From: Paraspadella gotoi
Taxonomy: Eukaryota; Animalia; Chaetognatha
Direction: 5' to 3'
Assembly: GCA_051294375.1 (NCBI GenBank)
Contig: CM119263.1
Coordinates: 6,048,932-6,112,931, forward strand
Length of the DNA stretch: 64,000 nt
This document shows, piece by piece, positions 6,258 through 60,327 of the stretch. Every line of letters starts with the position of its first letter. The stretch's first letter is position 1. The translations under genes were made by a program, and so were the position numbers. Below the pieces are notes generated by a model, which saw nothing but the letters and a program-made list of their open reading frames with translations, was not told where the DNA came from and did not search any database.

Positions 6258-9200
6258 TAGGGTGTGTCAAAATCTAAAAGTTGTTCTGATCCTAATTTAC
6301 ATCTAACACGATGGGGCAGGGCTAAAATAAATAGGTTTGCACGAATCGCCATTCAAATTGGTCTAACACCCTTACGTCTACCCTTGCTTAAAGACAGTTT
6401 AGCACACCTTTCACATCATAAGTCACTGTGTCTAAAGTATGAGAGCTTTTGACGTCCACCTCAATTCATTAGTTGAAAAAATGTGCAAAGTTAACTATAT
6501 TAAAATTTCAAGTCTCTACTCCATCTCGCGGCTCCACAACAGCATCCACAGCTGGAGAATGTACAAACCACTGCATTGATGGCATTATCTATGGAGTTGT
6601 GGAGGTAACCTAAATATTTCCCAACAAATTTTATTCACAACTAGGTACTCTTTGTAATTGAGCATCATTTTTTTTAAAAAAATAGTGTAGTCACATCCTG
6701 GAGGATAAATCCTGTACAGATTCTTTTAAAAAAAAATTATGCCCAAAATAGTTATCATTAATTTTTGTTATGGCATCAATCAATAAAGGTAGATGGGCTA
6801 GCAGTGTATGCTAAATTTCATTTTGATTGACCATGTACTTTTCATATAGCCCGTTTTAAAGCATTTTCAAAAAAAAATTTGAAACACTGATGGTCAAAAA
6901 AATATTAAAATTATTTCTTCAAAAATGGCTTCATTAGTGAGAAAAGACTTTAGTTTTATATTTTAACCATAATTTCATGAACTTCAATATCAACATGCTT
7001 GTGAAGGCATTCCTAAATTATTGAAGGATGGGACGAACGGTTGTGGCTGAAGATCAAGTTTAAAAAAGCAGTAAGATTTTATTGTATATCAAAATTTATT
7101 TTTTTTATGATATCGGATTTACAACTTTGACTTTTCATTAGAATGTGCCCACATTTTCGTGGATACTTGGATGTCAGTGTCTGCTTGAAGGATTGATAAT
7201 TCAGAAATATTAGCATTAATACATTCATTTTCCGTTTATACATATCATATACTATATTAATGTGTAAAAAATACTAAAGCTTATTTTTCACAAATAAAAA
7301 AGTTTATTTATCATAATAGCCAAAACGCGCGCAAAATAACAAAAAGCTTGCTACAGTTGTTTGTTAAAACTTCCAAACATACAATTACAAATAAAACTAT
7401 ACAAAGAACATCAATAATAAACATTCAATTTTTTATGTATCGAGTAATAGTACGGTTGACCGGATTTTAAAAATAAAATTATTATTATTTTAAATAAATT
7501 ATTCATCAAACTAACATTTGTCGTGAAAATGTAAAAAACATTAAGTCTGTGCTAATTATCTTGAAACGTGATTTGTCCTTTGCTCCGTCAATCAGCTTTG
7601 AGATCGCCATATCGCTAATCCAAATCAGAGACATCTATTATATAATAACAGATCTCTACTCTATTAAGTGTTATTTAATATTACTTCAGATAACTTTCTT
7701 ACTAAATTAATGTAATTAGTACTTTTTTCGTATTATTTTGCGGACAGTCAAGACGATCATCCCTCTTTCCAAATTGACCAATTATATAAGTTTGTCCTAA
7801 TTCATTAGTATTACTTTATCTGGTGAGTACTTTGTGCGCGTTTTGAACTGTAACGAGTTTGTGAGTTCTAAACGTAAATAAGCATAAAGATCTCATCGAA
7901 TTAATAATGCAATGATTGCGACAAGTTTTGAGCAACACCAAATTCGATATGCCTTGGGCATCGACTAATTTAGGTGATGATTGTAAAATTAATTTTAGCT
8001 CGACGTTCTCATATTATTAATCTCCAAATATTTGTTTATTAAGTTTTTCGTCTAGAGCCACTATAAAAGCGAATGAATGATTGGGCCGACGACGAAATAA
8101 TGCCGATAATAGATTTGTAGCATTGTGATTGTGTATTGGCGTTGCGGTCAAGGGTGCATCTGTCGTGTAAGGGGCATAGCAGGGACGCTCGGCTCCAACG
8201 GCCGATGGCAGAGGATTTTCGACATCCCAGTGCTCAAGTTTCCCGATTATATAGCGGAATAGATCCGATAGCAATACTGGTATATTTTTAACATTTGAAA
8301 CTGAGAAAAGTCAAAGGCAGTTGCCACGTTTTAGCGCGCAATGTCTTATTAAACTGTTTTTTAAGTGGATTTTAACGTTGTGTTTATTTGTGACAAAACA
8401 ATTGAAACTAAGATATTATTACCTCGTCTGTCAGATGTTCTCGAAAGATGATTAACGATTTTAAAACGATCGTTGGATATCTCTGATTTGTCCGTCTGCT
8501 ACTCGAGAAAGCCAAAATAGACAATTTTGATATTAAACCGAGGCAGCTTAAACAGATTGATTAAATAATTAATAGATAAATAAATTGATTGATTGAATAA
8601 TCAATTTATTGATTAATTGACTGATTAATTAGTTATTGATTATTTAATTGATTAACTAATGAATTATTTGATTAATTAATACAACTTGAATTTACATTTA
8701 ATATAAAAAGAAAAAAGAAGCATAATCAATTAGTGAAACAGGTTTTTTTTTCATATAAACTCATTTCCACTCAGACGATTCCATTGAGACTTAACATTTG
8801 AAACTGAAGAAAAGTCAAAAGCAGTTGCCACGTTTAGCCGCCGCAACGTCGTTTATTAAACTGTTTTTAAGTGGATTTTAACGTGTTGTTTATTGTGACA
8901 AACAATTGAAACTGATTTTATTCCTCGTCTCCATATGTCTCGAAAGAATTCAATTTTAAAACATCGTTGGATTCTCGATTGTGGTCTACGAGAAAGCCAA
9001 AATAGACAATTTTGATATTAAACCGAGGCAGCCTTAAACAGATTGATTAAATAATTAATAGATAAATAAATTGATTGATTGAATAATCAATTTATTGATT
9101 AATTGACTGATTAATTAGTTATTGATTATTTAATTGATTAACTAATGAATTATTTGATTAATTAATACAACTTGAATTTACATTTAATATAAAAAAAAAA

Positions 9201-11144
9201 AGAAGCATAATCAATTAGTGAAACAGGTTTTTTTTTTCATATAACTCATTTCCACTCAGACGATTCCATTGAGACTTAACATTTGAAACTGAAGAAAAGT
9301 CAAAGGCAGTTGCCACGTTTAGGCCGCAACGTCGTTTATTAAACTGTTTTTAAGTGGATTTTACGTGTTTGTTATTGTGACAAACAATTGAAACTGATTT
9401 TATTCCTCGTCTCCATATGTCTCGGAAAGAATTCAACATTTAAAACATCGTTGGATCTCGATTGTCGTCTACGAGAGAAAGCCAAAATAGACAATTTTGA
9501 TATTAAACCGAGGCAGCTTTAACAGATTGATTAAATAATTAATAGATAAATAAATTGATTGATTGAATAATCAATTTATGATTAATTGACTGATTAATTA
9601 GTTATTGATTATTAATTGATTAACTAATGAATTATTGATTAATTAATACAACTTGAATTTACATTTAATATATAAAAGAAAAAAGAAGCATAATCAATTA
9701 GTGAAACAGGTTTTTTTTTTCATATAAACTCATTTCCACTCAGACGATTCCATTGAGACTTTATTTCCGGCTCAATCCCACACTTTCCTACCCACATACA
9801 AAATCGCCCCATGCACTCCATGAGTAATCGCCATTCAAATAGTGAAATATATTTTTTTTGTTTTTTTCTATTTTAACTCATTTCCTCGGACGATTCCATC
9901 GAAACTTGATTTCCAGCTCAATCACACAATTCCTACCCAGGTCCCATACACAAAATTTCATTCCAATCCATCCAAATCACGAGTAATTGGAGTGTTTTGC
10001 TAAGGTGGATGGACGGACAGACACAGACGGACGGACAGACATCATTTTTTTACATAATTAATCAAAATTCAATTTCTGTGACATATATAAGTGAATGCCC
10101 GACAAGATTGTAGGGAGCGGACGGACGACTTGACAAAGTGAATTATAGAGCCGGAATCTGCTGTTTTGTTTTTATTTGTTTTTTGAAAATTCATACAGAT
10201 TTACAATCCTTCAAGCAGTCTGAACATCCAAGTATCTACGAAAATGTGGACACACCCTAATGAAAAGTCAAAGTGTAAGTCAATATCAATAAAAAAAAAA
10301 AAAAATATTGATATACAAAAAAATCTTAATGCTTTTTTAAACTTGATCTTTAGCCACAACCGTTCATTCACATCCTTCAAAATTTAGGAATGCTCTTACA
10401 AGCATGTTGATATTGAAGTTCATGAAATTATGGTTAAAATATGAAATTAAAGTCTTTTCTCAACTAATGAAGCCATTTTTGAAGAAATAATTTTAATATT
10501 TTTTTACCATCAGTGTTTCAAATTTTTTTTTTTGAAAATGCTTTAAAACGGGCTATATTGAAAAGTACATGGTCAATCAAAATGAAATTTAGCATACACT
10601 GCTAACCCATCTACCTTTATTATTGATGCCATAACAAAAATTATTGATAACATTTTGTGCATAATTTTTTTTTTAAAAGAATCTTTACAGGATTTATCTT
10701 CCGGATTGACTACACTCTATTTTTTAAAAAAATGATGCTCAATTACAAAGAGTACCTAATTGTGAATAAAATTTGTTGGGAAATATTTAGGTTACCTCCA
10801 CAACTCCATAGATAATGCCATCAATGCAGTGGTTTTGTACATTCTGCAGTGTGTGGATGCTGTTGTGGAGCTGCGAGATGGAGTAGAGACTTGAAATTTT
10901 AATATAGTTAACTTTGCACATTTTTTCAACTAATAATTAAGGTGGACGGCAAAATCTCTCAGACTTTAGACACAGTGACTTATGATGTGAAAGGTGTGCT
11001 AAACTGTCTTTAAGCAAGGGTAGACGTAAGGGTGTTAGACCAATTGAATGGCGATTCGGTGCAAACCTATTTATTTTGACCCTGCCCCATCGTGTTAGAT
11101 TTAAATTAGGATCAAGAACAACTTTTAGATTTTGACACACCCTA
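6258..11144. mobile_element. non-autonomous foldback/MULE-like DNA transposon with ~940-bp TIRs and 9-bp TSD
   Basis: Starts TAGGGTGTGTCAAAATCTAAAAG and ends CTTTTAGATTTTGACACACCCTA; 6258-~7197 is inverted against ~10204-11144; ATGTGCCAT is duplicated at 6249-6257 and 11145-11153; no transposase ORF. Confidence 0.85.
8288..9760 (+). repeat. three tandem ~485-500-bp units inside the foldback element
   Basis: TTAACATTTGAAACTGA(A)GAAAAGTCAAA starts units at 8288, 8791 and 9276. Confidence 0.9.
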
Positions 11145-15774: not shown

Positions 15775-17172
15775 TTAGTATTCAATCGTTATCAGTAGCG
15801 CTGGTAAGAAAATGAATATCAAAAAAGAAAAGTTGGGCGTTTGTAAGACAGCGATATCGAGATTGGCGTCAAATTTTTTAAAGAGATTTCGAGGTTTACC
15901 AATCATAAAAAAAAAGTCTTTCTGGTGTTCAGGATTGTTTCTTATGTATTTGCAAACGCTAAGGCTACCAATCAAAGAATTTGCCAGGTGGTAGATAGGC
16001 TGAGATATTTTTAAATATTCCTCCTTGGAATTTTTTCCCTGTAATGTTTTAAACAAATGTTTGCCAAAAATATTTTCATTATAGTAAATCATCTTCTTTG
16101 AAAGTAGCTGTGAATATGATAATATGTAAAGCAAGTTACCTAAAACCACAATGAATATTTTCCCCAAAAAACTATGTTTCATGCATCTAATTTCTTTTAA
16201 AATATTAAACCAAAAACCGAGAAAAGGAATTAATATCAAACTGTAAATAAGAAGGCAATTTTCCCGTATGAAAATATATGTTAAAATTATAGATATAATT
16301 TTTGAGTATTTCGGTTTCTTGGATTCTGGTATGGAGAAGTTGCAAAATTTTAAAAAGTGCAACTCTCCTTCATTTAAAAGGTTTTCTGTCAATTCTTTGA
16401 AAAAGATAACATAAAAAATTCCTAAAAGATTTGTTATTGTCATAAATAAGATAATAAAAAAAAATTTTACAACTTTAAATCTTTTAATGAAGTAACAGTT
16501 AAATAAACCTAAGCTAAATACTAAAGAATGAATAAGACACCAGTTTACTAATAAACTTTGGAACCAACTCGCCCAAAATTGCGTATTTAAGAGCTTGTTT
16601 TCAATTACTTTGGGTACAATATGAGATACATTAAAGTCTCGCTTTCCTCTGAATATAAAAAAATTATCCTTGCTAAAAGTTTTTTTCTCTAAATAGACAT
16701 TCAAAAGATTAAGATTCTTTATTGAATAATACAGGTTACAATAAATAATAATTGCTACTACAAATAATGTGCTTAAAGCTATAAGTGATTTAAAAAAAAT
16801 ATTTTTCAAATAAAAAAGATTAACCCAATAACCAAGAGACAGTAAAATTTCACAAAGAAGTAAACTTAGCTGCATTCTAAATCCCAGACTTAACCTATAG
16901 TTACCTAGCTTCATATTGCTTACTCTGACGTTTGAACAGTTTTTTTGGTATGGTATATTGTATTGAAAAAATGAAACCCTTTTCCATTTTTCATTTATCA
17001 TGCCTTTTACTTTGAAACACGAGGATTCTTCAAACGATGGTATATTATTTATAATATGAATGGGCTTTAAAAAAAGTAACAACCGGGCGGATATATCATT
17101 TTGTAAATATTTCAGTCCCCATTTGTTGTAGCCATCTTTTGTAAAGATAAAGTTCAAGTGTTGTTCTACCAT
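15775..17172 (-). CDS. intronless 465-aa multi-pass membrane protein of unknown family
   Basis: 1.4-kb open frame in very AT-rich DNA with roughly 7-8 hydrophobic segments; no motif recognised. Confidence 0.6.
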   Translation of the reverse strand: MVEQHLNFIFTKDGYNKWGLKYLQNDISARLLLFLKPIHIINNIPSFEESSCFKVKGMINEKWKRVSFFQYNIPYQKNCSNVRVSNMKLGNYRLSLGFRMQLSLLLCEILLSLGYWVNLFYLKNIFFKSLIALSTLFVVAIIIYCNLYYSIKNLNLLNVYLEKKTFSKDNFFIFRGKRDFNVSHIVPKVIENKLLNTQFWASWFQSLLVNWCLIHSLVFSLGLFNCYFIKRFKVVKFFFIILFMTITNLLGIFYVIFFKELTENLLNEGELHFLKFCNFSIPESKKPKYSKIISIILTYIFIRENCLLIYSLILIPFLGFWFNILKEIRCMKHSFLGKIFIVVLGNLLYILSYSQLLSKKMIYYNENIFGKHLFKTLQGKNSKEEYLKISQPIYHLANSLIGSLSVCKYIRNNPEHQKDFFFMIGKPRNLFKKFDANLDIAVLQTPNFSFLIFIFLPALLITIEY

Positions 17173-18601
17173 TTTAGAAAAAGAGTACAGAATCAGAGGT
17201 TAAACTGTGCGAGATAATCATTTCTTTAATAGTTTTTTAGAATTTTGCTCGCACGTAAGATTCATAGAAAATCACTTAAATAAATTAAGAAAAAATATTC
17301 TCTTTAATTCGCACAAAGAAAATATTCTAAATAGTATTGTGGGAAATAAAAAGAAACAGACGTAGGAAAATTTATTGTCATATCAAAAACAAGAAATAAA
17401 AGTAGGGAAATTCCTAAGACTCCCTGAAGTACTCCAAGAACTTGGTCATTTTATTTGCAAAACTGAAGAAATACAATCTGTATTGGAAACGGAGGCTTCT
17501 CGAATATCTATCTGCGCATTTTGCCAAACTGAATGTCGATAAAACTATAGAAAACAATAGAAAATATTCCCGAATTCTCCAGCTGCAGATTTCAATGCGT
17601 TTTATAATGCGTTCCAAGATTTTGCAGGAACAGGTGATTTGAGTTTTTAAAGAGCTCCATTCCGGCCTAGCTCGTACACCCTACCTGGAATCCATAAATA
17701 GTTGTTAATCGAAACATCATTTAATCGGTAATCGTATACTGCCTGAAAAATTATGAAACAAATTATTCCCCAAGCATATCTCATTGGTTTCACCAGTCCA
17801 ACCCAAGACAGTGACCATTGTCTGTATCACCATCTGCGGAAAAGACTCAAAGTAAAACGTGGATGAGATTCATCTTCTTTATAAACGTAGTTTTCATTTC
17901 AATCACCCGTTGATGAACCTTTAAAAAAAATAAATATATCTATTGTATTGTGATATTTAGGCAAAAAATATCCGGCATGCGTAAAAGTATTTATTTATTT
18001 TTTTCTATGTAAAATTTCCTTCCGATGTCTGTTTCCCAAGGTCAAACCGTTAAAAAATTATAATGAATATAAGATGGCTATATCTAGTGAAAAATGGAGA
18101 ATGTCGCAAATATTTGCCTGGAACCAGGTACGAGGGTCATTAGGAGACTATTTAAAATCATCATATTATCATATTATTGGTATACAATACGGAAAATTAT
18201 TTTTTTCTCATTTAAATTATTTTTTACGGAATTTTATGGAACTAAAAATGTTAGATTAAAGATATTATTAAAATTGTACAATTTTTTTAGTATAAATTTT
18301 TAAAAAATGGCAAATTTATAAAATGAAGATGATTATTTTTTATTTTGTTAACTTTTTACGCTTATAAAAGTAGCCATAGCCGATGAAATTTAAATGCTAA
18401 TGTATACAGCGTTAAAATAATCTATCATGCCCATAGATTATGGTATTAAAATATTTTTTGTCAAAAATGCTTTCTTCTGAGGGTACTCGCCTAATTAAAA
18501 ATATTATATTACTATATAGAGCAAAAAATATTTTTTTAAAATCTTAAAATTTGTTGATGGATTCTGATAGAGCATAAAAAGTTAAACAAGAAATATAATT
18601 A

Positions 18602-18787
18602 CGGAGGCAAGTCATTCGCCTCCCAACCCAAAGGTCCGGGGTTCTAGCCCGGTGGCCGCCTAGCAGTTAAGAGGGACAGGGCGCTTAACCCGCCTGTAAC
18701 ATGGTATTACAGCCTGATCCGAAGCTCAGGGACTGCTTATATTGAACGGTTCTGTCATTAACACTTATCAATAATTACTGTCTCTTC
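18602..18787 (+). mobile_element. tRNA-head/twister element, subfamily 1 (5'-truncated, first of a tandem pair)
   Basis: Matches 19021-19207; twister at 18663-18736, with the T1 strand reading ACAGG instead of ACGGG. Confidence 0.8.
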
Positions 18788-19006
18788 ATTGGTGAGCCCG
18801 ACTTCCGAACACAACAGCAACAACAACACTTTCAGGCGACTTGCCTCAACCTAGAGATGCACTTTCCGCCAACAACACATCAGGCGATATGCCTCAACTT
18901 GGTGACGCACTTTCCACCAACAACAATTCACTGAAGAGATGCAACAGACTTCTCCCTACGGGAGGGGGGGATGTATGGTGGACTAAAATCCACCAACCGT
19001 TCATCA

Positions 19007-19079
19007 GCGGCCATTGGTGCCGGAGGCAAGTCATTCGCCTCCCAACCCAAAGGTCCGGGGTTCTAGCCCGGTGGCCGCC
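19007..19079 (+). ncRNA. tRNA-derived head (pseudo-tRNA, Pol III A/B boxes)
   Basis: 73 nt; acceptor stem GCGGCCA/TGGCCGC, A-box-like TGGTGCCGGAGG, T arm CCGGG-GTTCTAG-CCCGG; D and anticodon arms are poor. Confidence 0.75.
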
Positions 19080-19081
19080 TA

Positions 19082-19155
19082 GCAGTTAAGAGGGACGGGG
19101 CGCTTAACCCGCCTGTAACATGGTATTACAGCCTGATCCGAAGCTCAGGGACTGC
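19082..19155 (+). ncRNA. twister ribozyme, P5-type permutation (subfamily 1)
   Basis: GCAGUU-AAGAGG-GA-CGG-GGCGCU-U^AA-CCC-GC-CUGUAACA/UAUUACAG-CCUGA-UCCGAAGC-UCAGG-GACUGC; T1 CCG/CGG, T2 GC/GC; predicted cut 19105/19106. Confidence 0.8.
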
Positions 19156-19462
19156 TTATATTGAACGGTTCTGTCATTAACACTTATCAATAATTACTGT
19201 CTCTTCACCTTTTAATCAATAAATAAGCCATCTTCCCCCTGACTTCTTACTTGAAAAGTAGGATTAAGGCCTTTATCCTTTTTACAAAATGATTATATAT
19301 AACATATATAATCATTATATATATCATCATAATATATTGGTTGTACCAATTTCATATAAAGACATTGAAGTGACCGAGAGGAGAGAGGGTCGCTATGCCT
19401 CTCTGTGAGTGAGAATAGCCCCCACACCCAGTGAGTCGGGGAGATTTTTTTTGTCAGTTGCA

Positions 19463-19617
19463 TTGCTTTCCAGAACTACGGATCCGGCGGTAAGTTTTCT
19501 ACTGGTGGTTTAATCGGCCCGTCACTATTTTTGCAAGGTCTGTTCCGATCAGGGCTTGAAGCCATGACCATTGGTTGCAAAGATGAAGCGTTCGCCCAGT
19601 GCGCTATTACATCGCCG
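19463..19617 (-). mobile_element. tRNA-head/twister element, subfamily 4 (degenerate)
   Basis: Minus strand: A box TAGCGCACTGG (19596-19606), B-box-like GGCTTCAAGCCC (19552-19563), then UUGC-AAAAAUAGU-GA-CGG-GCCGAU-UAA-ACCAC..CCGGA-UCCGUAGU-UCUGG-AAAGCAA (19463-19536). Confidence 0.7.
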
Positions 19618-20214: not shown

Positions 20215-20461
20215 TTTTCATACAATTGAAACATTCTTTGAAATATTTTCCACTTCATTGATAGGGAAGCCAGGTACTCTGGGAGTGAATAAACGAGACT
20301 GTGAAAGAGTCTTGATTGAAAGCTTGCAGGGACCTGCTATGTCATTATCTTGTAAGAGTGATGGAGGCCTTAAACCACCAAAGCCTGTCCAAAGTCAGGG
20401 GCAAGATAGCTTATTTATTAAATGAATGGATAATTTTTATATTGGTTGTACCAATTTCATA
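20215..20461 (+). repeat. ~245-bp dispersed repeat (copy at 45074-45310; fragments near 19210, 23270, 26395)
   Basis: TTCATACAATTGAAACATTCTT...AAAGTCAGGGGCAAGA.AGCTTATTTATTAAAT...TTGTACCAATTTCATA is shared. Confidence 0.8.
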
Positions 20462-21328: not shown

Positions 21329-21594
21329 AACAGACTTCTCCCTACGGGAGGGGGGATGTATGGTGGACTAAAATCCACCAACAGTTTCATCAGCGGCCAT
21401 TGGTGCCGGAGGCAAGTCATTCGCCTCCCAACCCAAAGGTCCGGGGTTCTAGCCCGGTGGCCGCCTAGCAGTTAAGAGGGACGGGCGGGCGCTTAACCCG
21501 CCTGTAACATGGTGTTACAGCCTGATCCGAAGCTCAGGGACTGATTATATTGAACGGTTCTGTTATTAACACTTATCAATAATTACTGTCTTTT
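21329..21594 (+). mobile_element. tRNA-head/twister element, subfamily 1
   Basis: Conserved upstream CAGACTTCTCCCTACGGGAG..GGTGGACTAAAATCCACC, tRNA-like head 21393-21465, twister 21468-21544 with perfect P3 CTGTAACA/TGTTACAG. Confidence 0.8.
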
Positions 21595-22400
21595 CAAAGG
21601 GTTAATTTTTCTTTCACCGATTGGAGTGAGCAGGTTTAGGGTTAAGGGGGGTTTAGGGGTGGTTTAGGGATAGGGTGATTAGGGTTAAAAGGGTTTAAAG
21701 TTTAAGGTAATTAGTAATAAATTTTTTAAAATTCTTTTTAAAAATAAATATTTTAAGTGATTTTTTTAAAAGACGCCAAAACCGGTCGGCGAAAGTAAAA
21801 TTTAGTCAAGCCAAAATTAATTTTGCTTCATTATCAACCCAAGATAATCAAAAACCTGCTCATCACTTATTTTGAACCTAGTAAAGAGCTAGTTAGTAAA
21901 CTTCCAACATCGAAATTACTTTAACTAATATCGGGCCTACTTTTCAGTAAATAATATACAGAAAATGCGTTGATAAAGAGAAACACTTAAATCCATTTTT
22001 GATGGGTACACGTTCCTATTTTCCCAACTTACTTTTGCCAAATTCTTGGCAGGATCTTACCTTTAGGTCGGAGCCTACGTCGAGAACGTTGAGCCAATGT
22101 TATCGGTCATGCAGAATTTAGATTAAATCTCCATTTGCACAGCAGAATGAATATACAGGTTTTATAGAGAATAAATAAATATCTTGTCATAATTCAAATA
22201 AATTGTATCTGTATTATTTAAAATTTTTAGATTAGTTTCTTTTTTTTATTAAGTTTATTTCTTGTTTTGATCTCGTTAATTTTACCTATTTTTCCTCAAA
22301 AGACTGGGTATCTTTTTAAAAAAGCCACTTTTAAACATAAATAATTCAAGTAATAAAGTTTAATCTGTTTGACAATAAAAACTTGTTGCATATGCATTAA

Positions 22401-23004
22401 GGCGTAGTGAACGTTACATACGAAAATTCTAAAAGTCAATTATGAATAACATACTATCAGTGAACATTAATTTGTAAAAAAAATTAATTTTTTGTTTTTT
22501 AATTTTCGCAGTAGGCTAATTTATATATAGTACTATCCTTATAAAATCGAAAAATTTCAAAATAGGCTTTTCTTAATTTTGATTGCAGATTTGAATTCCT
22601 CGTTAAAAGTTGATAGAAGAAAATATAAATCATTTTTAAAAATTCCTTCATTAAGTTGGTTAAAAATTAAAAAAACTATATTTAATATATAAAAAGTTAA
22701 TTTGCAGCTTAAAATATAGCTTTTTCTAATTTTTGACCCACTTAATGAAGGAATTTTTCAAAAAGAGTTATATTTCTTTTTATCAACTTTTTATGACGAA
22801 TCCAAATCTGCAAAAAAATTTTGGAAAAAACTGTTTTGAAATTTTAACATTTATTGGTTTAGTACTAGTATAAATCTGGCCTACTGCAATTGTAAAATTT
22901 ATTATAATTTTTTTTATTACATAAATGTTCATTAGTATAATATGTTGTTCGTTCCTCACTTTTAGAATTTTAATTAAAGTTAAATTTAAAAATTTTACTA
23001 CGCC
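22401..23004. mobile_element. palindromic MITE with TTAA flanks (Kolobok-like)
   Basis: TTAA|GGCGTAGT ... ACTACGCC|TTAA; the internal halves are imperfect reverse complements. Confidence 0.7.
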
Positions 23005-24237
23005 TTAATATGCATAAGCAAGTTTGTTTTTTTGTTTTTTTTTGTTGGTTTTTTTTTTAATTATAAGTTGTCAATAAATAGATTTTATAGAAAGCTTAGG
23101 TCGTCCTTTTATATAGGCGTTTTATTTCGAATTCAACAAGTTGATTCAGTACATACAGGAGCATCAAAACAAAGCTAAGTCTAAAGACAAAACAAAGTTA
23201 AAGATTGCCCGAAAAGATACAGTGGCTGATATGAACCAAGGTTCTCGGGTCGAGAAGAAAGAAGAATAAAAGTCAGGGGCAAGATACCTTATTTATTAAA
23301 TGGATGGATAATTTTTATATTGATTGTACCAATTCAATAATTGAAAGAAATAAATAGGAGGTTGATTTAAGATTAAAAAATAAGCTCGTGATAACAATAT
23401 CATGTTTGCGGAATGAAAAGTTCTACAATTGTAGATTAAGATTTACGAGAAGCGAAAATTATGATCGGGAAGAGGATGACTCTAATCGTCGCGACGGATC
23501 TGTGGATCAATCTGTCCATCCCTCAAAAACGGAAATACCAAGTGTTGTTGTTGTTGTTGTTTTTTTGTTGTTGTTTTGTTGTTGTTGTATGTTGTTGTTT
23601 TTGTTGTTGTTGTGGTTTTGTTTTTGTTGTGGTTTTTTGTTGTTGTTGTGTTTTTTGTTGTTTGTGGTTGTTGTTGTTGTTTTTGTTGTTGTTTTTTTTA
23701 TTTTTGTTGTTTTTGTTGTTGTTGTTGTGACCATTGTCGTAGGCGTTGTCTCATTTGACGATAATTAGTTTCCGTTATCAAATTTGACGCCTAATTGACA
23801 CTCGTCGCCACCTGAGATTTTAAACGTTTCCGCTGAATTTATGGCGGATTAATCGCGTTTATTATGTCGCATTTGCCTGCAGTTGCGTGAGCGTAATTGG
23901 GGAAGAGAGTAAGAAGATTTTAACAATGCGTGATGAGGTCAACGAGATAAGAGGGAATTCTGAGCCCGTCAATATCACGGATTCCTCTGTCGCTTTCATC
24001 GTCAATATATGTATATTCACTATATTGTAGTAACTTATACTAAAAAGTTTAGTTCATTGGAAGAAGAAAAGAATTATGACATGAAGTCGTGAACGATGGA
24101 TTATATAAGCTAGAGCCGATATATGAAATTTGTTCAATATTATATTGATAAAATTGACTTTTTCTTATGCGTTTTGTTTATTCCTTCTTTGGTAAATAGT
24201 GTCTTGTTAGCGAATCCTAAATTTGCCTCCCGTATAG

Positions 24238-24470
24238 CTTGGTAAAATTCAGATCGTCCCTTTGGCTTGGACAGCTAAATACTCGTTCACCAATCGTGTC
24301 ATTCGGGTTCAATCCCCTCACGGACTCGCTGGTTAAAGTGTGATGGCGTCGGCATAAATACGCCAGTGACATGGCATGGTCACTGCAGGTCCAAATCCCT
24401 GACCGCCATCTTTCGGAATGTGTATAACACCCCGGCCATCACACATGTCCCCCGTTGCCAATAGTCTAGT
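24238..24470 (+). mobile_element. tRNA-head/twister element, subfamily 3
   Basis: A-box-like TGGCTTGGACAG, B box GGTTCAATCCC (24306-24316); twister 24331-24404 GGUU-AAAGUGU-GA-UGG-CGUCGGCA-UAA-AUAC-GC-CAGUGAC/GUCACUG-CAGG-UCCAAAUC-CCUG-ACC; tail CCCGTTGCCA shared with subfamily 2. Confidence 0.75.
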
Positions 24471-27386
24471 ACTTTCGTCTCTCACGCGAATAGACCGTGG
24501 TTCCATTCCCCGCCAAGTATGAAGAACTTCATTTGTTTTTAAAATTATATTTCATCGATAAGAATTATTTTTTTCCATCTCTACTTTTACACAATTTTTC
24601 TATGGCATCGATTATAACGTGCATAGTATGCTTATTTATATTTATTATCATTAGTTGAATGAACGCGGTTAGGCGAGAAATTATTTTCTCACTCTTGTTA
24701 AAACAATAAACTGGCAAATTTACGTGCCCCCAAAAAAATAGGCTCTGACTAAAGCAAAACTCCCCAAAAAAGATAACTCTTGACATTTTGTCACATTCCT
24801 GCGAAGTTCACATTCTTTGAAGTTATTCTCCGAAAATCTAATTACGCCTTCGTCCGGATAACGTGGGGGAAAAAAACTTTTTTTTTCATTCATTAGGTTT
24901 TAAAAACTTTTCTCCTGCCTGAATTGGCTGCATTAAAACATAGCATCTTGCTTCTCATTTTGTCCAGATGATGCTTTTCGTATTATTTTCTTTGGTGTCA
25001 TTTTCCCGTAAGTAACCCTTATTTTTTTATCAATTTATAAAGTAATTAAATAAACAAAAACAAAGATGTTTTCTCCGTGAAGATTGTGTTGTTGTTCGTT
25101 CGTTTATTTCGGCAGTTCTCGTCCTTTTGTCGGCGTCTCGAGTTTCACTAAGGTTTTACTAACGTTTTCTTAATTAATGTGATAAAGTTTAATAATTAAA
25201 ATAAATTAAATAAAGTTAAGTAAAATTAAAACAGTTTGAATCACCGAGAATATTTGACGAAAAAATGAAAAAATGAAATTTTAAATCTTCAGCGGTTCTG
25301 GGTCGAATCATATGCGACTTTCAGCGACCGGTCCGGCCTGGCTCGAACCCGGCTCCGTTCCGACGCGGCAAATTTTCTCGTCGACAACCACATTGACACC
25401 TGCGAATACAGATGCACCGAGGAAGCGGCGCGGCTTCCCTGTAAGGCCATTGCCCTCGCCGAAGACGGAATGCTGGATGCTTCCCTACGATTACGATGAA
25501 TACTTTGCGGCCAATAGGATTAGATCCTCGATGGGATTACATTTTTTACACTCCCGAATGCTACGGTTGGTTGGTTTTTGTCATAAAACAATCTATATGA
25601 AAACATATCACTGTTGGTTTAAGACATTTCAAAAATAATTTGTCAAAGCAAGTTTTGAAAGCGAAAACTGGGTTTAATACTTATTTTAATTCTTGTTTTT
25701 TTTTTCCCCCATATGAGAAAAAAAGATTTTCGTCGGTCAGATTTAGCCTTAAGAAATTTTAGTTTCATTTATATGCAATTGATAAAGTGTAAAATAAAAT
25801 TGTACAGTGCTTGTTTCCTTGTTTTACTAAATATATAAACTAAGTAAATATCATATTCTTCGATTATCACGCAGACGACGAGACGCGACTTCCGGTAGAG
25901 GGAAAAAAATGCCGCCGCTCTCAAGATTGGCCTCGCGAGACTATCCCGCCAAGAACGTCCACGGGAGATGACGAGCGACGCTTCGGCCCGCGCGATTACA
26001 CGTTGTATCCCTGGGAGACGAGGAGTTCGAATCGACCGACCAATCGCCCGACGGTTCGAAAGACTAAAATCCCGACGAATCCATCTCGTCTCTTTAATTA
26101 AAGTTAAATTTAAAAATTTTACTACGCCTTAATATGCATAAGCAAGTTTGTTTTTTTGTTTTTTTGTTGGTTTTTTTTTTAATTATAAGTTTGTCAATAA
26201 ATAGATTTTATAGAAAGCTTAGGTCGTCCTTTTATATAGGCGTTTTATTTCGAATTCAACAAGGTTGATTCAGTACATACAGGAGCATCAAAACAAAGCT
26301 AAGTCTAAAGACAAAACAAAGTTAAAGATTGCCCGAAAAGATACAGTGGCTGATATGAACCAAGGTTCTCGGGTCGAGAAGAAAGAGAATAAAAGTCAGG
26401 GGCAAGATACCTTATTTATTAAATGGATGGATAATTTTTATATTGATTGTACCAATTCAATAATTGAAAGAAATAAATAGGAGGTGGATTAAAGATTAAA
26501 AAATAAGCTCGTGATAACAATATCATGTTTGCGGGAATGAAAAGTTCTACAATTGTAGATTAAGATTTACGAGAAGCGAAAATTATGATCGGGAAGAGGA
26601 TGACTCTAATCGTCGCGACGGATCTGTGGATCAATCTGTCCATCCCTCAAAACGGAAATACCAAGTGTTGTTGTTGTTGTTGTTTTTTGTTGTTGTTGTT
26701 TTTGTTGTTGTTGTATTTGTTGTTGTTTTTGTTGTTGTTGTGGTTTTTTGTTTTTGTGTGGTTTTTTGTTGTTGTTGTGGTTTTTGTTGTTGTGTTTTGT
26801 GGTTGTTGTTGTTTTTTGTTGTTGTTTTTTTTATTTTTGTTGTTTTTGTTGTTGTTGTTGTGACCATTGTCGTAGGCGTTGTCTCATTTGACGATAATTA
26901 GTTTCCGTTATCAAATTTGACGCCTAATTGACACTCGTCGCCACCTGAGATTTTAAACGTTTCCGCTGAATTTATGGCGGATTAATCGCGTTTATTATGT
27001 CGCATTGCTGAGTTGCGTGAGCGTAATTGGGGAAGAGAGTAAGAAGATTTTAACAATGCGTGATGAGGTCAACGAGATAAGAGGGGAATTCTGAGCCCGT
27101 CAATATCACGGATTCCTCTGTCGCTTTCATCGTCAATATATGTATATTCACTATGATGGTAGTAACTTAACAAAAAGTCTTAGTTTGACAAACTAGCTTC
27201 ATTTGGAAGAAGAAAATAATTATTGACATGAAGGTCGTGGAACGATGGATTATATAAGCTAGAGCCGATATATGAAATTTGTTCAATATTATATTGATAA
27301 AATTGACTTTTTCTTATGCGTTTTGTTTATTCCTTCTTTGGTAAATAGTGTCTTGTAGCGAATCCTAAATTTGCCTCCCGTATAGC

Positions 27387-27620
27387 TTGGTAAAATTCAG
27401 ATCGTCCCTTTGGCTTGGACAGCTAAATACTCGTTCACCAATCGTGTCATTCGGGTTCAATCCCCTCACGGACTCGCTGGTTAAAGTGTGATGGCGTCGG
27501 CATAAATACGCCAGTGACATGGCATGGTCACTGCAGGTCCAAATCCCTGACCGCCATCTTTCGGAATATGTATAACACCCCGGCCATCACACATGTCCCC
27601 CCGTTGCCATAGTCTAGTAC
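27387..27620 (+). mobile_element. tRNA-head/twister element, subfamily 3 (duplicate copy)
   Basis: As 24238-24470; twister at 27479-27552. Confidence 0.75.
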
Positions 27621-28210
27621 TTTCGTCTCTCACGCGAATAGACCGTGGTTCCATTCCCCGCCAAGTATGAAGAACTTCATTTGTTTTAAAATTATATTTC
27701 ATCGATAAGAATTATTTTTTTCCATCTCTACTTTTACACAATTTTCTATGGCATCGATTATAACGTGCATAGTATGCTTATTATATTTATTATCATTAGT
27801 TGAATGAACGCGGTTAGGCGAGAAATTATTTTCTCACTCTTGTTAAAACAATAAACTGGCAAATTTACGTGCCCCCAAAAAATAGGCTCTGACTACAAGC
27901 AAAACTCCCCAAAAAAGATAACTCTTGACATTTTGTCACATTCCTGCGAAGTTCACATTCTTTGAAGTTATTCTCCGAAAATCTAATTACGCCTTCGTCC
28001 GGATAACGTGGGGGAAAAAAACTTTTTTTTCATTCATAGGTTTTAAAACTTTTCTCCTGCCTGAATTGGCTTGCATTAAAAACATAGCATCTTGCTTCTC
28101 ATTTTGTCCAGATGATGCTTTTCGTATTATTTTCTTTGGTGTCATTTTCCCGTAAGTAACCCTTATTTTTTTATCAATTTATAAAGTAATTAAATAAACA
28201 AAAAACAAAG

Positions 28211-31200
28211 ATGTTTCTCCGTGAAGATTGTGTTGTTGTTCGTTCGTTTATTTCGGGCAGTTCTCGTCCTTTTGTCGGCGTCTCGAGTTTCACTAAGGTT
28301 TTACTAACGTTTTCTTAATTAATGTGATAAAGTTTAATAATTAAAAATAAATTAAATAAAGTTAAGTAAAATTAAACAGTTTGAATCACCGAGAATATTT
28401 GACGAAAAATGAAAAATGAAATTTTAAATCTTCAGCGGTTCTGGGTCGAATCATATGCGACTTTCAGCGACGCGGTCCGGCCTGGCTCGAACCCGGCTCC
28501 GTTCCCGACGCGGCAAATTTTCTCGTCGACAACCACATTGACACCTGCGAATACAGATGCACCGAGGAAGCGGCGCGGCTTCCCTGTAAGGCCATTGCCC
28601 TCGCCGAAGACGGATGCTGGATGCTTCCCTACGATTACGATGAATACTTTGCGGCCAATAGGATTAGATCCTCGAGGGATTACATTTTTTACACTCCCGA
28701 ATGCTACGGTTGGTTGGTTTTTGTCATAAAACAATCTATATGAAAACATATCACTGTTGGTTTAAGACATTTCAAAAATAATTTGTCAAAGCAAGTTTTG
28801 AAAGCGAAAACTGGGTTTAATACTTATTTTAATTCTTGTTTTTTTTTTCCCCCATATGAGAAAAAAAGATTTTCGTCGGTCAGATTTAGCCTTAAGAAAT
28901 TTTAGTTTCATTTATATGCAATTGATAAAGTGTAAAATAAAATTGTACAGTGCTTGTTTCCTTGTTTTACTAAATATATAAACTAAGTAAATATCATATT
29001 CTTCGATTATCACGCAGACGACGAGACGCGACTTCCGGTAGAGGGAAAAAAAATGCCGCCGCTCTCAAGATTGGCTCGCGAGACTATCCCGCCAAGAACG
29101 TCCACGGGAGATGACGAGCGACGCTTCGGCCCGCGCGATTACACGTTGTATCCCTGGGAGACGAGGAGTTCGAATCGACCGACCAATCGCCCGACGGTTC
29201 GAAAGACTAAAATCCCGACGAATCGCCCGACGAAACGCCCGACGAATCGCCCGACGAATCTCCCGACGAATCGCCCGACGAATCGTCCGACATCTCGAAG
29301 TCCGATCGATCGACTTCGGCCGAGCTCGAGACCGTCAACCGAGACTGAACCGACAAGGGGAAACCTTAGGCTCGGAACTACGATATTCTGGACTTGGGAC
29401 TCGAAGAGAGGCAGATGGATCGAGGGATCGACTCGTGAGAACAGAAACTCAGATGACGATCGAGAAAGAAAATGGACGGAGAGAAGAGTGGATTCTTCCT
29501 CGAAGCCTTTCGAGATCTCGAGAACGTCGAATCCAACTACATCCGGGAGTTTTCGGCCCACGACGAGAAGATGGAACGAAAGACTTCAAAGAGAGAGGAT
29601 AGAGAATGAAAGAAGATGGGAAAATAGACGATCGGAAATTAACAGGGAAACCATCGAACGAAGGCGGACGAGCACCTTTCATTCCAGACGTGATTGGGGT
29701 GATTTTCGGGATAGTTTTCCGACTGAGAGAAGTCCAAGCAAAGGTTCGATTGACGGTTCTTTGGATTCGGAGAGAAGCAGAGTCAGTGAGAGTACAATAC
29801 CGACAATCCGAACCTTTTCCGTAAATGCAGGATACAGAACTTCGCCAACTGTTTCCCATGGCGACAGATCAGAGAGAAGATTTAATTCTCAATCTAGTCG
29901 CTCGGACGTGACCCGAACAACGACGTTTAGACCGAACGAGAGAACGAGACCAAGGGAAACAAACAGATACCCGGAGAGTCTTCAAACTTGGAGAAATGTC
30001 TATCAACGAAGGAATTGGTGGAACAAAGACGGCAACAGATGGGACGGAAACACGAGCCCAACTGGTCGAGGAGTTGGAAGAACCCGATCAACTGTTGCAA
30101 GCACATCTAGCGATAGATCTAATGAGAGAACTATAACAACTAAAAATTCGTGGAAATTATGGCAAAGTAGATTTCCGGAGAGTCTTTCGCGAACGGATCG
30201 AACCCAAGTTATCACTTCTCGATCCGGATCACCAGATAGAAACAGATGGATAGAGAGCCCTTCTCCAAGCATAGTTCCGACCATTTTTAGGAGTAAACGT
30301 CCAATCAACAGATGGACTGACCACTTTGTTAGCGGGTTTCCAAAAATTGAACCACCATCGCGCGCTCCTTTGATTGACAGAGATTTGAACAATAAAAGAG
30401 AAGAAGCAAATAACTTTGATGAAAGATTAAAGATTTTGTACAGTGATCCTTACGGGCAAGTTTACACTAGGGAACCTTATTATCCGTGGTGGCCCACGCG
30501 ATCGAGAACAACCTCTTCAATATTCGAATCTTCAACACCTCCGCCAACGACGACAACGACAACAACAAGCTCAACGAGGACGCCAACAACGACAATATCA
30601 AGCTCTAACAATACGCCAACAACAACATCAAGTTCAAAAACGACGCCAACAACAACAACATCAAGCTCAACAACGACGCCAATAACCACAACATCAAGCT
30701 CAACAACGACGCCAACAACCAGACCATCACGGCAGGTTATCAGTTCATCAGCGACTACCACAACATCTCTCCCGAGGTCTACTTCCAGGATATTCAGATC
30801 TACGACCGATCCGTATAATTGGTGGAAAAAACCTCCCACTAAAAATCCTTGGTTGTGGTATCTAACTAGAACAAAAATAAATCCAACGAGGCCACCCGCA
30901 ACCGAGAGTATTTTAACTAGAAATGTTTACAGAACAAATTACGTTACGGGCGAGAAAAGACTTGATGAATCGGATGTTACTGAAACAGATATTAAATCTG
31001 TAATACCAACATCGCCAGTTTTCGGTTCTTCAGTGATATCAACTTCTAAATTCCCCGAGTCAAGCACAAAGATAACGACCTTAAATTCCCAATTGTCTCA
31101 GTTGACGAGCCCTCGCATTCCAATTCGCAGAAATGAGGCTGATGGCATTTTTGTCACTAGGAATCCCTATTTCATTTCGATCAAAAATAATGTCCGACAA

Positions 31201-39690: not shown

Positions 39691-41972
39691 ATGTCTCTGT
39701 GGACATTGAGGGTGCGTGTCCTCGGTCATTTCTACGCCTTTAAAGACGCGGCCAGCGAATTGGCGAAACAAATCTACGAGGAAACCAAGAATGTCTGGAG
39801 CTTCGACCACGGGCCGGACTGCTCTAAAAAATCCGAACAACTGAGCAACGGCGAACTAAGAAAAACAAAAGGACAGTTGATTCGACTCAGCGGAACAGTG
39901 TGCGGGATCGAGTTTTGCTACGCCGCCGAAACAGGTTGAAAAAAGGAATCGTAACGATCGTAAACTGTTAACGTATGGATAATAATAATAATAATAATAA
40001 TAATAATGTTAATGATAATTATTTCAGTTCATGCGATAATTTAATTAAATAAAATAAATAAATAAAATTAAATGGGCCACAATCAACTTACCAATTTCAT
40101 AACCCCCGTCCAGCCTTCGTCAGCCCTATCCTACTCAACATCGGCGTCCCAGTTTACCTCATGACCCTCGTCTGGTGTCTCTCTCCGATCCTTGGCTTCT
40201 TCCTCGGGCCTCTCCTCGGATCCCTAAGCGACAACTGCCGCCTCCGATTCGGTCGTCGACGCCCCTTCATCCTCCTCTACTCCTTGGGCATCTTGGCCGG
40301 TCTCATCCTCGTGCCGCGCGGGTCGGGGCTGGGCGTGGCCCTCGGCGACGTCGAATCCTCGTCAATTCTTCGTCGACCCTCGTCAAAGGCGGAGATCCTC
40401 CACGCCTCAGTCTCAAAGGCTCACCTCCGCTGGAACGACACGTTCGTCGACGAGACGTTCGACGGCAACGCCTCCTCCGCAACTCTTAAGGAAGCGCCGC
40501 CGCTCTCCTCTCGACCATGGGGCACAGCCCTCACAATCTTGGGAGTGATGTTGCTGGATTTTTGCTGCGACTGCTGTCAATCCCCCAGCCGCACTTACTT
40601 GCTGGACATGACTGCGCCGGAGGAACATCAAGAAGGTCTCTCTACTTTCACCATCATGGCCGGCGTCGGCGGGGCCATTGGATACGTTATGGGCGGCGTC
40701 GATTGGGAGGCCGCCGGCGTCTTTTCTCGCGGCGTCGCCGCCGACGAAGCCATCGGCGGCCACGTTTTCGGCTTGGTCCTCTTCGCTTATCTGGTTTGTC
40801 TGACGGTCACGGTAACGGCGTTCGAAGAAGTTCCCTTAGAGGATGTCGTCGTCTTTGAAGAGCACATTGAGCTCAAAGAAGAAATGAAGCAAACTCGGCT
40901 CTTGAAGGACATCCTGGAGGAAGAGTCAAGCTGTTCGTCCCCGAGTGAGACGACGCCGGAAGACGAAGGAGCAAAGGCGCAAGAATTCGGCGTCTTTGGA
41001 GAGCGCAATGCCGGCGCCGTTTCGGTTGACGTTTTCCAAGGAGAAATTCGTCGTCCTTCGACGATCGTAATCGATCCTGGACAGACGAGTGGACTCTCTC
41101 TCGACCGACAGACCCGAGCGTCGGAATCCTTGAATCCGAAATACGATTCCACTTCGGCGTTCAACGACGAAAATCGCGACGGCGCCGAAACGAATCACGA
41201 ATCTACGCCGCAAACGAAAAACGTCACACACGCTGGCGTCACTCGTCGCCCCTCACTCGCCTCTTCTCTCTCGGCCCCGATCCAAGATATAACCCTTAAG
41301 ACTTACCTGCTCAGCATCTTCCACCTCCCCACCTCTCTCCGCGTTCTCTGTCTCACCAACCTCCTCAGTTGGATGTCGCTCGTCAGCTTCAGTCTTTACT
41401 TCACCGACTTTGTCGGTCAGTCTGTCTTCGGCGGCGATCCCAGCGCCCCGCGGCACAGTCCTGCCCGCGACGCCTACGAATCCGGCGTCCGGACGGGCTC
41501 CTTGGCGATGGCGCTCTACTCGATCTCCTGCTCGATCTTCTCGTCCCGACTGGAAGGTCTCATAGAACGATTCGGCGCCCGACGCCTCTACGTTCGCGGC
41601 CAGCTCATCTACGCGGCGGGAGCCTTGCTCATGGCGCTTTTCCCTTACCGCGCGTCGGTGTTTCTTCTCTCGCCAACGGCCGGAGTCATGTACGGAACTC
41701 TTTTTACGATTCCCTACATCCTCCTGGCCAATTATCACTCCCGCGGGGTTTTCGAGGTAAAGAAAGGGGCAGGGCCGGCGCCCAAGCGCGGGCTGGGGAC
41801 CGACGTAGCGCTCGTGTCGTCTATGGTCTTCGTCGCTCAGTTTCTTCTCTCCGCATTTATGGGCGTCGCCGTCCACGTGACCGGAAGTACGAGGACGGTG
41901 ATGGGTATGGCGTCGATCTGCGCCGCGGCAGGATCCTTCGCCGCCACCAAGGTTTTGTACCTAGACTTGTAA
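39691..41972 (+). CDS. SLC45-family (MATP / proton-associated sugar transporter-like) MFS transporter
   Basis: Exons 39691-39934 and 40114-41972 join to GIEFCYAAETAFVSPILL; also GSLSDNCRLRFGRRRPFIL, LLDFCCDCCQSPSRTYLLD, LYFTDFVGQSVFGGDP, RGLGTDVA. Confidence 0.93.
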
Positions 41973-42319
41973 ATCTATGCCATCTTACCATCGCAGGAAA
42001 TGGACCAGTAGAGGGATCTGATAGACCAAATGGTTTGCCAACTTCTTTGTCCTGGTAACAGTTATTATCAGAAAAAAAATATTTGGGTGCGTCCGAAAAG
42101 ACTAGTCGATACATTTCGATTTCATTCAAATTTTAACTCGTCATAATTCCTAATTGTAATTATAATTATTACTTTAGCGATTCATATTAATAGTTTCCAT
42201 AACACTTACACATCATTTATAAAACCATATTTATCCCTAGTAGTGAAAACAAACCAAATTAAAATTTATATAAGAAGTTAATTCTGCAGTTTTAGGAGTT
42301 GACAATAAATCTTTAAAGG

Positions 42320-57069: not shown

Positions 57070-57806
57070 TGGCAGCAAGACTTAAAGCTCGCCTCACTGC
57101 TCTTCCGTCCTCAGCCTCGTCTCAATGGCTGAGGCAGGCTAATCATCTCATTCCATCCGTGGCGTCCCGGGTTCAATCCCTGGGTATCCCGGTTCTGGCT
57201 TAAATGTGACGGTGGCCGGTATAAAACATGCCAGTGAGCAGGAGGCGGTCACTGAGGGTCCGCAGCCCCTACGCCAGTTGGTGAGATACCCCGCGCCCCG
57301 GTATCACAGGCTATCCTCCCGTTGCCATAAGTGTGTGACGCCCTACTCTCGAACACGCACACCAGACCGTGCGCACACGCTGCGCCCACCAGCTTACGTC
57401 GCTTAGGGATGCATATCACGCCTATGCCGCTACTTCTCTGGTAAACGCTCCAGACTCGCTCGCTCGCTGCGGTCTCCGCTCGCTCTCATATGGCAATGAG
57501 ATCAAAACCTTCTCTCAAGACATCTCCTCAGGATTGAGGCCCTGTGGAGAAGTCTGGTGGGGGATCCTGTGGCAGCAAGACTTAAAGCTGCCTCACTGCA
57601 CTGCTCCGTCCTCAGCCTCGTCTCAATGGCTGAGCAGGCTAAATCATCTCATTCCATCCGTGCATCCGCCGGGTTCAATCCTGGTATCACCCGGTTCTGG
57701 CTTAAATGTGACGGTGCCGGTATAAAACATGCCAGTGACAGGAGGCGGTCACTGAGGGTCCGCAGCCCCTAACGCCAGTTGGTGAGATACCCCGCGCCCG
57801 GCGGGT
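57070..57806 (+). mobile_element. tandem pair of tRNA-head/twister elements, subfamily 2
   Basis: A box TGGCTGAG(G)CAGG, B box GGTTCAATCC; twisters at 57195-57277 and 57697-57778; runs into an N gap. Confidence 0.8.
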
Positions 57807-59346: not shown

Positions 59347-59500
59347 AATGATATTTTTAAAAAAGGAATAAAAAGAGGAATTGAGAGGAAATAAGAAAGG
59401 AGATAAGAAAGTGAAAGAAAAAAGAAGAAGACATTAGAAGGAAATTGAAGAGGAAAAGGGAAAATAAATGGAGAAAGAAGAGAAGCCAGTAAGTAGGGAA

Positions 59501-59580
<80 letters not shown>

Positions 59581-60251: not shown

Positions 60252-60327
<76 letters not shown>

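Follow-up and report, generated by a model that had tools for sequence, protein, structure and literature searches.

Putative twister ribozymes with palindromic P1 linkers in tRNA-headed miniature LTR elements of the chaetognath Paraspadella gotoi

Long terminal repeat (LTR) retrozymes have so far been described in plants, where they use hammerhead ribozymes; the retrozymes described in animals have no LTRs, primer-binding site (PBS), polypurine tract (PPT) or promoters; and the tRNA-headed TRIMs (miniature retrotransposons with terminal repeats) described so far have no ribozymes. A 2026 preprint (10.64898/2026.07.22.740005) still puts LTR retrozymes mainly in plants, and RTE-type elements are known to carry twister ribozymes at their 5′ end (PMC8501958, PMC7761336). 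Here we analyse a window of 64,000 nucleotides from the chaetognath Paraspadella gotoi (GenBank assembly GCA_051294375.1, contig CM119263.1, positions 6,048,932 to 6,112,931 of the forward strand), whose short repeats carry putative twisters. We propose that several of these repeats are LTRs of TRIMs and, with less support, that a palindrome beside the ribozyme cut site enhances cleavage by allowing two twisters to pair.

At positions 19099–19107 of the window the sequence reads GGCGCT+TAA, with the T1 strand GACGG immediately 5′ and CCC-GC, the P3 hairpin, P4 and the loop TCCGAAGC 3′. The initial annotation had reported a short self-complementary linker between the T1 strand and UAA, and this was borne out: judged by its sequence context, GGCGCU (19099–19104, plus strand), which can form a 6-bp self-duplex with G.U ends, is confirmed to occupy the P1 position of a type-P5 twister, the form that ends in P5. 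The complete motif of this subfamily 1 spans 19081–19156 (plus strand), with P5 at 19081–87/19150–56, a P2 of 2 bp plus C.A, T1 as CGG/CCG, P3, P4 and the L4 loop UCCGAAGC; the cut is predicted between U19105 and A19106. The window contains five such subfamilies with P1 linkers of 6–9 nt: GGCGCU in subfamily 1, UGCCGGUA or a 9-nt form in subfamily 2, CGUCGGCA in subfamily 3, GCCGAU in subfamily 4 and AGGCCU in subfamily 5. The conserved twister core is present (GA-NGG, UAA, the L4 motif U-CCN-N-A-GY and the pseudoknots T1 and T2, with one T2 mismatch in subfamily 3), as are a P2 of 2–4 bp, a P4 of 4–5 bp and a P5 of 4–9 bp. A scored twister descriptor returned 12 window sites at 16.5–19.5 points; across 20 Markov-resampled windows the best site per window reached 12.2–17.2 points, and 16.5 was attained in 2 of the 20. 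Between subfamilies, both pseudoknots covary (T1, CGG/CCG versus TGG/CCA; T2, GC/GC versus AC/GT), and P4 and P5 stay paired despite their different sequences.

One possibility is that these motifs are relics of ribozymes, decayed or no longer active, and travel with a Helenus-type TRIM whose transposition uses ordinary linear RNA. An Rfam search of the window gave no match reaching the gathering score; a weak twister-P5 match at 20357–20399, in subfamily 5, had 25.8 bits (E 0.32, gathering 37.6), with the 14-nt P1 loop of the model unaligned. The stable P1 hairpin of type-P5 twisters is also missing, as the motifs' own P1 hairpin is energetically unfavourable. P2 is weak in subfamilies 1, 4 and 5, T2 has its mismatch in subfamily 3, T1 is mismatched in the copy at 18671, and the minimum-energy structures are misfolded. 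We nevertheless regard decay as very improbable: subfamilies that cannot otherwise be aligned retain GA, UAA, the L4 core and both pseudoknots, and do so with compensatory changes. Variation within subfamily 1 also argues against it. Public contigs of four runs (X1, X5, X4 and X9) were aligned to 18790–19270, which covers subfamily 1 only, and the 40 best-supported variants were considered, with 27 further ones outside this set; X9 may be an RNA run, but is not counted as evidence of expression. The common variants are of three sorts: those located in the P3 loop, those that leave pairs intact or re-create them, and CpG changes, for example at 19140 (3–13%). At 19125, where G restores a P3 pair, G is the majority base at 98.9–99.8% of contig depth.

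The repeats of subfamilies 1–3 are, with high confidence from their sequence features, LTRs of miniature non-coding LTR elements (TRIMs), each combining a tRNA-like head with a twister. An LTR–internal–LTR order with PBS and PPT is found in subfamilies 1 and 2, and subfamily 3 is represented by a solo LTR. Target duplications of 4 bp flank members of subfamilies 2 (GAAT) and 3 (GTCT); the subfamily-1 copy is 5′-truncated. A reading as a short interspersed element or a satellite was rejected on the strength of the PBS, the PPT and the 4-bp duplications.

In subfamily 1, the 3′ LTR occupies 18974–19207 (plus strand, 234 nt, TA...CA). Its ends are sharp in the contigs, with loose contig ends before 18974 in 175, 178, 104 and 30 contigs and behind 19207 in 143, 161, 96 and 41 contigs (runs X1, X5, X4 and X9, respectively). 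Summed depth over 18974–19207, which is not a copy number, is several-fold greater than over 18790–18973 and orders of magnitude greater than over the flank. Depth and sharp ends together fit a high-copy LTR with many solo copies. The internal part (18789–18973, plus strand) has, after the upstream LTR, the PBS-like TGGTGAGCCCGAC at 18790–18802, which matches the tRNA-Trp PBS of Gypsy-32_NVi and Helenus-2_SyJa at 13 of 14 nt, and a PPT at 18960–18971, with GGGAGGGGGGGA ahead of the 3′ LTR. The 5′ LTR (18602–18788, plus strand) is truncated at its 5′ end and has its own linker GGCGCU at 18680–18685. Within the 3′ LTR, the tRNA-like head (19007–19078, plus strand) has a box-B-like GGTTCTAGCCC at 19059–19069 and a degenerate box A, and its fold is more stable than expected (z=−3.2; 0 of 200 shuffles equally stable). 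The same head has a perfect 7-bp acceptor-like stem and a T-arm abutting the twister, and could be a substrate for RNase P or RNase Z. ARAGORN calls no tRNA. Immediately before the twister, subfamilies 1–4 have a tRNA-like segment that contains a box-B-like motif, and a clear box A is seen in subfamilies 2 and 4. Further subfamily-1 LTRs lie at 21359–21596 (plus strand, with a PPT upstream) and at 15–250, which has the same 3′ flank as 21359–21596.

The complete TRIM of subfamily 2 spans 58586–59345 (plus strand), with an LTR at 58586–58846, an internal part at 58847–59083 and a second LTR at 59084–59345. Its LTRs have TG...TA ends, each contains boxes A and B and a twister, and the target duplication GAAT stands at 58582–85 and 59346–49. 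Its PBS, TGGTGAGCCC at 58849, shares its first 10 bases with that of subfamily 1, and a purine-rich tract precedes the 3′ LTR. A second rendering of the element at 57070–57799 (plus strand; linkers at 57213–21 and 57715–22), whose flanks are duplicated as well, is probably an assembly duplicate. The solo LTR of subfamily 3 (27354–27611, plus strand, TG...TA, target duplication GTCT) has its linker CGUCGGCA at 27495–27502 and one T2 mismatch; a duplicate lies at 24205–24463. The assembly is noisy in this window, with indels between copies and duplicated segments. Near-identical duplications of 3.1 kb, 1.5 kb and 0.8 kb, differing mainly by indels, fall in 22900–29000 and 56300–60900. They are probably unmerged long reads, and the copies inside them are therefore not independent.

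The two remaining subfamilies are less complete. The subfamily-4 twister (19458–19545, minus strand; linker GCCGAU) lies downstream of box A- and box B-like motifs. The subfamily-5 repeat (20216–20461, plus strand) contains a P3-less P5 twister at 20345–20409 with the linker AGGCCU at 20365–20370, and neither box A/B nor LTR features were found in 20216–20461. A decayed subfamily-5 copy at 45074–45310 has lost the linker. Elsewhere, at 19267–19272 on the minus strand, AGGCCT and TAA persist in a decayed sequence related to subfamily 5 (72% over 82 nt), whose T1 strand and L4 have ceased to match.

In four of the five subfamilies a palindrome takes the place of the helix beside the cut site. 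The linker is TGCCGGTA at 57715–57722 in subfamily 2, CGTCGGCA at 24347–24354 and 27495–27502 in subfamily 3, GCCGAT at 19518–19513 (minus strand) in subfamily 4 and a perfect palindrome, AGGCCT at 20365–20370, in subfamily 5. The palindromy that the initial annotation saw in several subfamilies thus stands for four of five, including subfamily 5, which it had overlooked. In subfamily 2, full-length palindromy is confined to one copy: the linker has 8 or 9 nt across four noisy copies (TGCCGGTA once, TGGCCGGTA twice and one other indel variant), and a 6-bp self-duplex is possible in all four. Self-duplex energies for subfamilies 1–5 are −8.3, −10.9, −9.3, −1.3 and −9.1 kcal/mol, at percentiles 1.4, 1.3, 2.8, 32 and 0.7 of same-length k-mers of the elements, with a combined p of ~7e-5 against these k-mers and 0.008 against permutations of each linker. 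The linkers had also been described as too short for a hairpin, which goes too far: four of the subfamilies allow one with 1–2 bp and a loop of 4–5 nt, albeit at an unfavourable energy (+4.1 to +6.4 kcal/mol in isolation, +1.9 to +4.0 kcal/mol in context). The inner linker pairs cannot form within one strand.

The palindrome is kept through double changes, from CCGG to GCGC to GGCC. Between subfamilies 4 and 5, 5 of 6 linker bases have changed but only 2 of 17 flanking bases. For comparison, 42 viral or prokaryotic loci were picked by a P5 pattern. Of these, 15 were judged chance matches and 2 were tandem type-P1 twisters, and both groups were set aside; the remaining 25 carry 22 distinct P5 twisters. 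All 22, from phages and bacteria, have P1 hairpins of 14–26 nt and 5–11 bp; the usual P5 loops (UUCG, UCCG, GAAA-like) are non-palindromic. The inner 4 nt are palindromic in 4 of 5 subfamilies here versus 0 of 14 even-loop P1 hairpins there; counting the 4 of 8 odd loops that contain a 4-nt palindrome, the contrast is 4/5 versus 4/22 (Fisher p=0.017). The claim that palindromy survives sequence change holds as a real bias, absent from ordinary P5 twisters, and has to be reduced in strength: with only three distinct cores, the evidence for a bias above chance is moderate and falls short of decisive.

One possible use of such a palindrome is as a dimerisation or packaging signal for a Gypsy particle, similar to a dimerisation initiation site or PAL sequence and presented in a loop or in the 3′ tail of the cleaved RNA, with cleavage itself monomeric. 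Ty1 RNA forms dimers by means of the palindromes PAL1 and PAL2, in HIV-1 a GC-rich palindrome of 6 nt in a loop serves this purpose (PMC6844567, PMC7357161), Hatchet likewise dimerises at a palindrome, one dispensable for catalysis (PMC7357161), and an element with PBS, PPT and 4-bp duplications would be expected to be packaged. We consider this explanation decidedly unlikely, as the palindrome coincides with the P1 slot and keeps register with the catalytic core, and also occurs in subfamily 5, without LTR features in the window.

Instead, we tentatively propose, as a reading that falls somewhat short of probable, that the P1 palindrome lets the twisters of the 5′ and 3′ LTRs form a strand-swapped double ribozyme that would cut far better than either alone. 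A full TRIM has an LTR at each end and a twister in each LTR, and hence exactly two twisters. The two-twister transcript postulated by the initial annotation does arise in the sequence layout, as the ordinary transcript of a two-LTR element, although from the LTRs of a TRIM and not from a satellite array. The contig evidence at 18790–19270 did not demonstrate higher-order tandem arrays; the joint 19207→18790 was rejected as proof of one, since every full element has such an LTR-to-internal junction. The linker of the P5 permutation connects the T1 strand with the cut-site U, so that a full P1–P1 helix requires exchange of P2, T1 and P5, each 5′ half then pairing with the 3′ half of the partner twister. 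A dimer with P1 exchanged and the other stems intramolecular was rejected as impossible for a full helix, and the swapped form was adopted. In a nearest-neighbour model that omits pseudoknot terms, the swapped dimer lies below two twister-folded monomers by 10.5–16.3 kcal/mol in subfamilies 1, 2, 3 and 5 and by 1.9 kcal/mol in subfamily 4. A precedent comes from the axolotl hammerhead with one base pair and a palindromic tetraloop, which shows 6% cleavage as a monomer and cleaves much better as a dimer (PMC7229834).

Under this model, RNA polymerase III (Pol III) would use the tRNA-like head in the 5′ LTR as its start and read through the unit, which lacks a T4 run, into the 3′ LTR. The two linkers would kiss and the twister halves exchange; cutting at both UAA sites would then release a unit RNA of 419 nt in subfamily 1 and ~500 nt in subfamily 2, without terminal redundancy and with its ends pre-joined by P5. 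The predicted fold of the cut-to-cut unit does have P5 joining both ends. An RtcB-type host ligase could close the circle, which would re-form only one complete twister; as a poor monomer, this would reopen the circle slowly and so leave it protected. Finally, a Gypsy reverse transcriptase primed at the PBS would copy the circle and so generate full elements as well as solo LTRs, in the way put forward for plant LTR retrozymes, for which circularisation of such unit RNA is likewise proposed (PMC4918200). No reverse transcriptase was recognised by eye among window open reading frames (ORFs) of at least 120 aa, of which three were scanned against Pfam. The complete scheme, in which a dimer-dependent twister in an animal Pol III-driven LTR retrozyme cuts only the two-LTR precursor and spares the one-ribozyme circle, is a doubtful extension of the model.

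Several observations weigh against dimer-enhanced cleavage. Against unconstrained misfolds, the swapped dimer wins in only 2 of 6 copies, and in subfamily 1 a competing CGGG/CCCG hairpin spans the cut site and could silence the twister without a dimer. For the swap, P5, P2 and T1 would have to be exchanged at a point when the first twister could already have folded, and the upstream twister at this locus, in the 5′ LTR at 18602–18788, has a T1 mismatch (GACAG). The lack of a T4 run is not significant, as 35–45% of shuffles lack one too. The linker is nearly invariant across subfamily-1 copies: among the variants considered, the sole change is a CpG C>T at 19101 (0.2–5.3%), with a frequency similar to that of other CpG sites, and there are no compensatory linker variants. 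The central-pair switch is seen solely through subfamily 5, whose element class is not assigned.

Alternatively, each twister might cleave alone, with the linker a minimal tether or a vestigial 1–2 bp hairpin and the palindromy inherited or due to G/C-rich composition; the element would still be a twister LTR retrozyme. Published twisters can dispense with P1: those without it cleave at almost the wild-type rate (PMC5408937), and in the CHiTA survey, mainly of type-P1 twisters, the length, stability and imperfections of P1 had no effect on cleavage (PMC11662667). These tests used free ends and no short tether, so they count against, but do not decide, the initial annotation's suggestion that cleavage is gated to multimeric RNA. 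By established RNA geometry a 4-nt loop can close a helix end, and invertebrate retrozyme hammerheads with a 2-bp stem and a tetraloop cleave as monomers (PMC7229834, PMC7761336). The palindromes are few and come from related, not independent, subfamilies with three distinct cores (CCGG, GCGC and GGCC); 4 of the 6 arrangements of 2G+2C are palindromic, which puts the chance of three palindromes at 0.30. The subfamily-3 linker differs from that of subfamily 2 by C/T transitions only, and in subfamily 4 the palindrome is broken, GCCGAU forming 2 bp only. A free tether, however, gives no reason for all-G/C self-complementarity in three different sequences, for self-duplex energies within the top 0.7–2.8% of element k-mers in four subfamilies, or for the departure from the non-palindromic loops of ordinary P5 twisters. 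We regard independent cleavage as unlikely, though the strongest rival of the double ribozyme.

Other features of the window were noted in passing. Long inverted arms at 6356–7111 and 10289–11045 (83–99% complementary) surround three 485-bp tandem units (8288–9761) in what looks like a foldback or terminal inverted repeat element; scans found neither hammerhead nor twister in this structure (6356–11045), and a type I hammerhead scan of the window gave no match. Two adjacent GC-rich, uninterrupted ORFs, for a major facilitator superfamily (MFS)-type transporter (40062–41972) and an amino-acid permease (42317–43891), stand in otherwise AT-rich DNA; the best named relatives of the amino-acid transporter are ribbon-worm and mollusc proteins at 42–44% identity. 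A 474-aa hydrophobic ORF at 15775–17199 (minus strand) has no Pfam match. Outside the window, phage contig L174:1–337 (the same contig as L349; also L353) has a head-to-tail series of two to three twister-like units of type P1, separated by GAACGT only, and the AACGTT palindrome at the unit junction includes the cut-site U.

Full-text literature searches found no twister in LTRs and no dimeric twister; the original twister alignments (Roth 2014), Repbase and subscription papers lay outside their scope, and prior listing there is possible. The word ‘twister’ is absent from the available text of an RNA-dimer review (PMC7357161). Scans with a short-P1 pattern covered viral, metagenomic and prokaryotic collections and thus say nothing on other animals: among the matches listed, from at least 216 viral loci, three had P2 and P4 and none was a short-P1 P5 twister, and 120 metagenome loci gave no convincing twister. 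If correct, the combination described here would mean that animals, too, have the circular-RNA route of LTR retrotransposition and that twister ribozymes play a second role in retrotransposons. If the palindrome imposes dimer dependence, this would be the first such twister in the literature searched, with the ‘dispensable’ P1 acting as a switch in the P5 permutation and the ribozyme cutting tandem precursors while leaving the circle intact. The double-hammerhead trick would then have been invented a second time, by an unrelated class of ribozyme and in a retroelement that is likewise unrelated.

The putative twisters share with type-P5 twisters (Rfam RF02684) the core of GA-NGG, UAA, P2, T2, P4 and L4, and differ from the comparison set in having short linkers instead of P1 hairpins of 5–11 bp. 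The T-variant twisters of Schistosoma Perere-3 (PMC8501958) also have an eroded P1 and a retroelement location, but they are of type P1 and occur singly, at the 5′ end of a non-LTR element, and neither ‘palindrom’ nor ‘dimer’ occurs in the available text of that paper. In amphibian retrozymes and Penelope-like elements, the minimal hammerheads that act as dimers (PMC7229834, PMC6765202) likewise have a helix cut to 1–2 bp with a palindromic tetraloop, in a repeat that gives two ribozymes per transcript. They are ribozymes of a different class; hammerhead stem III is needed for the core, twister P1 is not, and their elements lack the LTR, PBS and PPT seen here.

In architecture, judged from sequence, subfamilies 1–3 agree with the structural definition of a Helenus-type TRIM. 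Like Helenus/TRIMp3 (Kojima 2024, PMC10886601), they are short non-coding LTR elements with tRNA-like Pol III boxes in the LTR, a PBS close to the Helenus tRNA-Trp type, a PPT, many solo LTRs and the 4-bp target duplication found in animals. Helenus is not reported to carry a ribozyme; in the available text the word appears once, in a reference title. Six twister L4 octamers had 6 matches in the Helenus supplement, none in a twister context by eye, although wrapped lines may hide matches. The Helenus LTRs inspected have a T-run directly after the tRNA-like part, where the present elements have the twister and no T4, and the LTR ends TG...TA or TA...CA are also unlike those of Helenus. With plant LTR retrozymes (Cervera et al. 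2016, PMC4918200; PMC5680766) they have in common a ribozyme motif in each LTR, a PBS and a PPT, 4-bp duplications, the occurrence of solo LTRs and a cut-to-cut unit that could circularise and be copied by Gypsy enzymes. They differ in their animal host, their own tRNA-like promoter and their unit size (420–500 nt versus 600–1000), and for the plant circles the presumed protection is that the ribozyme pairs with a complementary strand, rather than a dimer requirement. On paper the elements resemble an LTR retrozyme, yet with a putative twister in place of the type III hammerhead that defines that class. They thus appear to join Helenus, the tRNA-headed TRIMs for which a ribozyme is unreported, to the hammerhead-bearing LTR retrozymes of plants.
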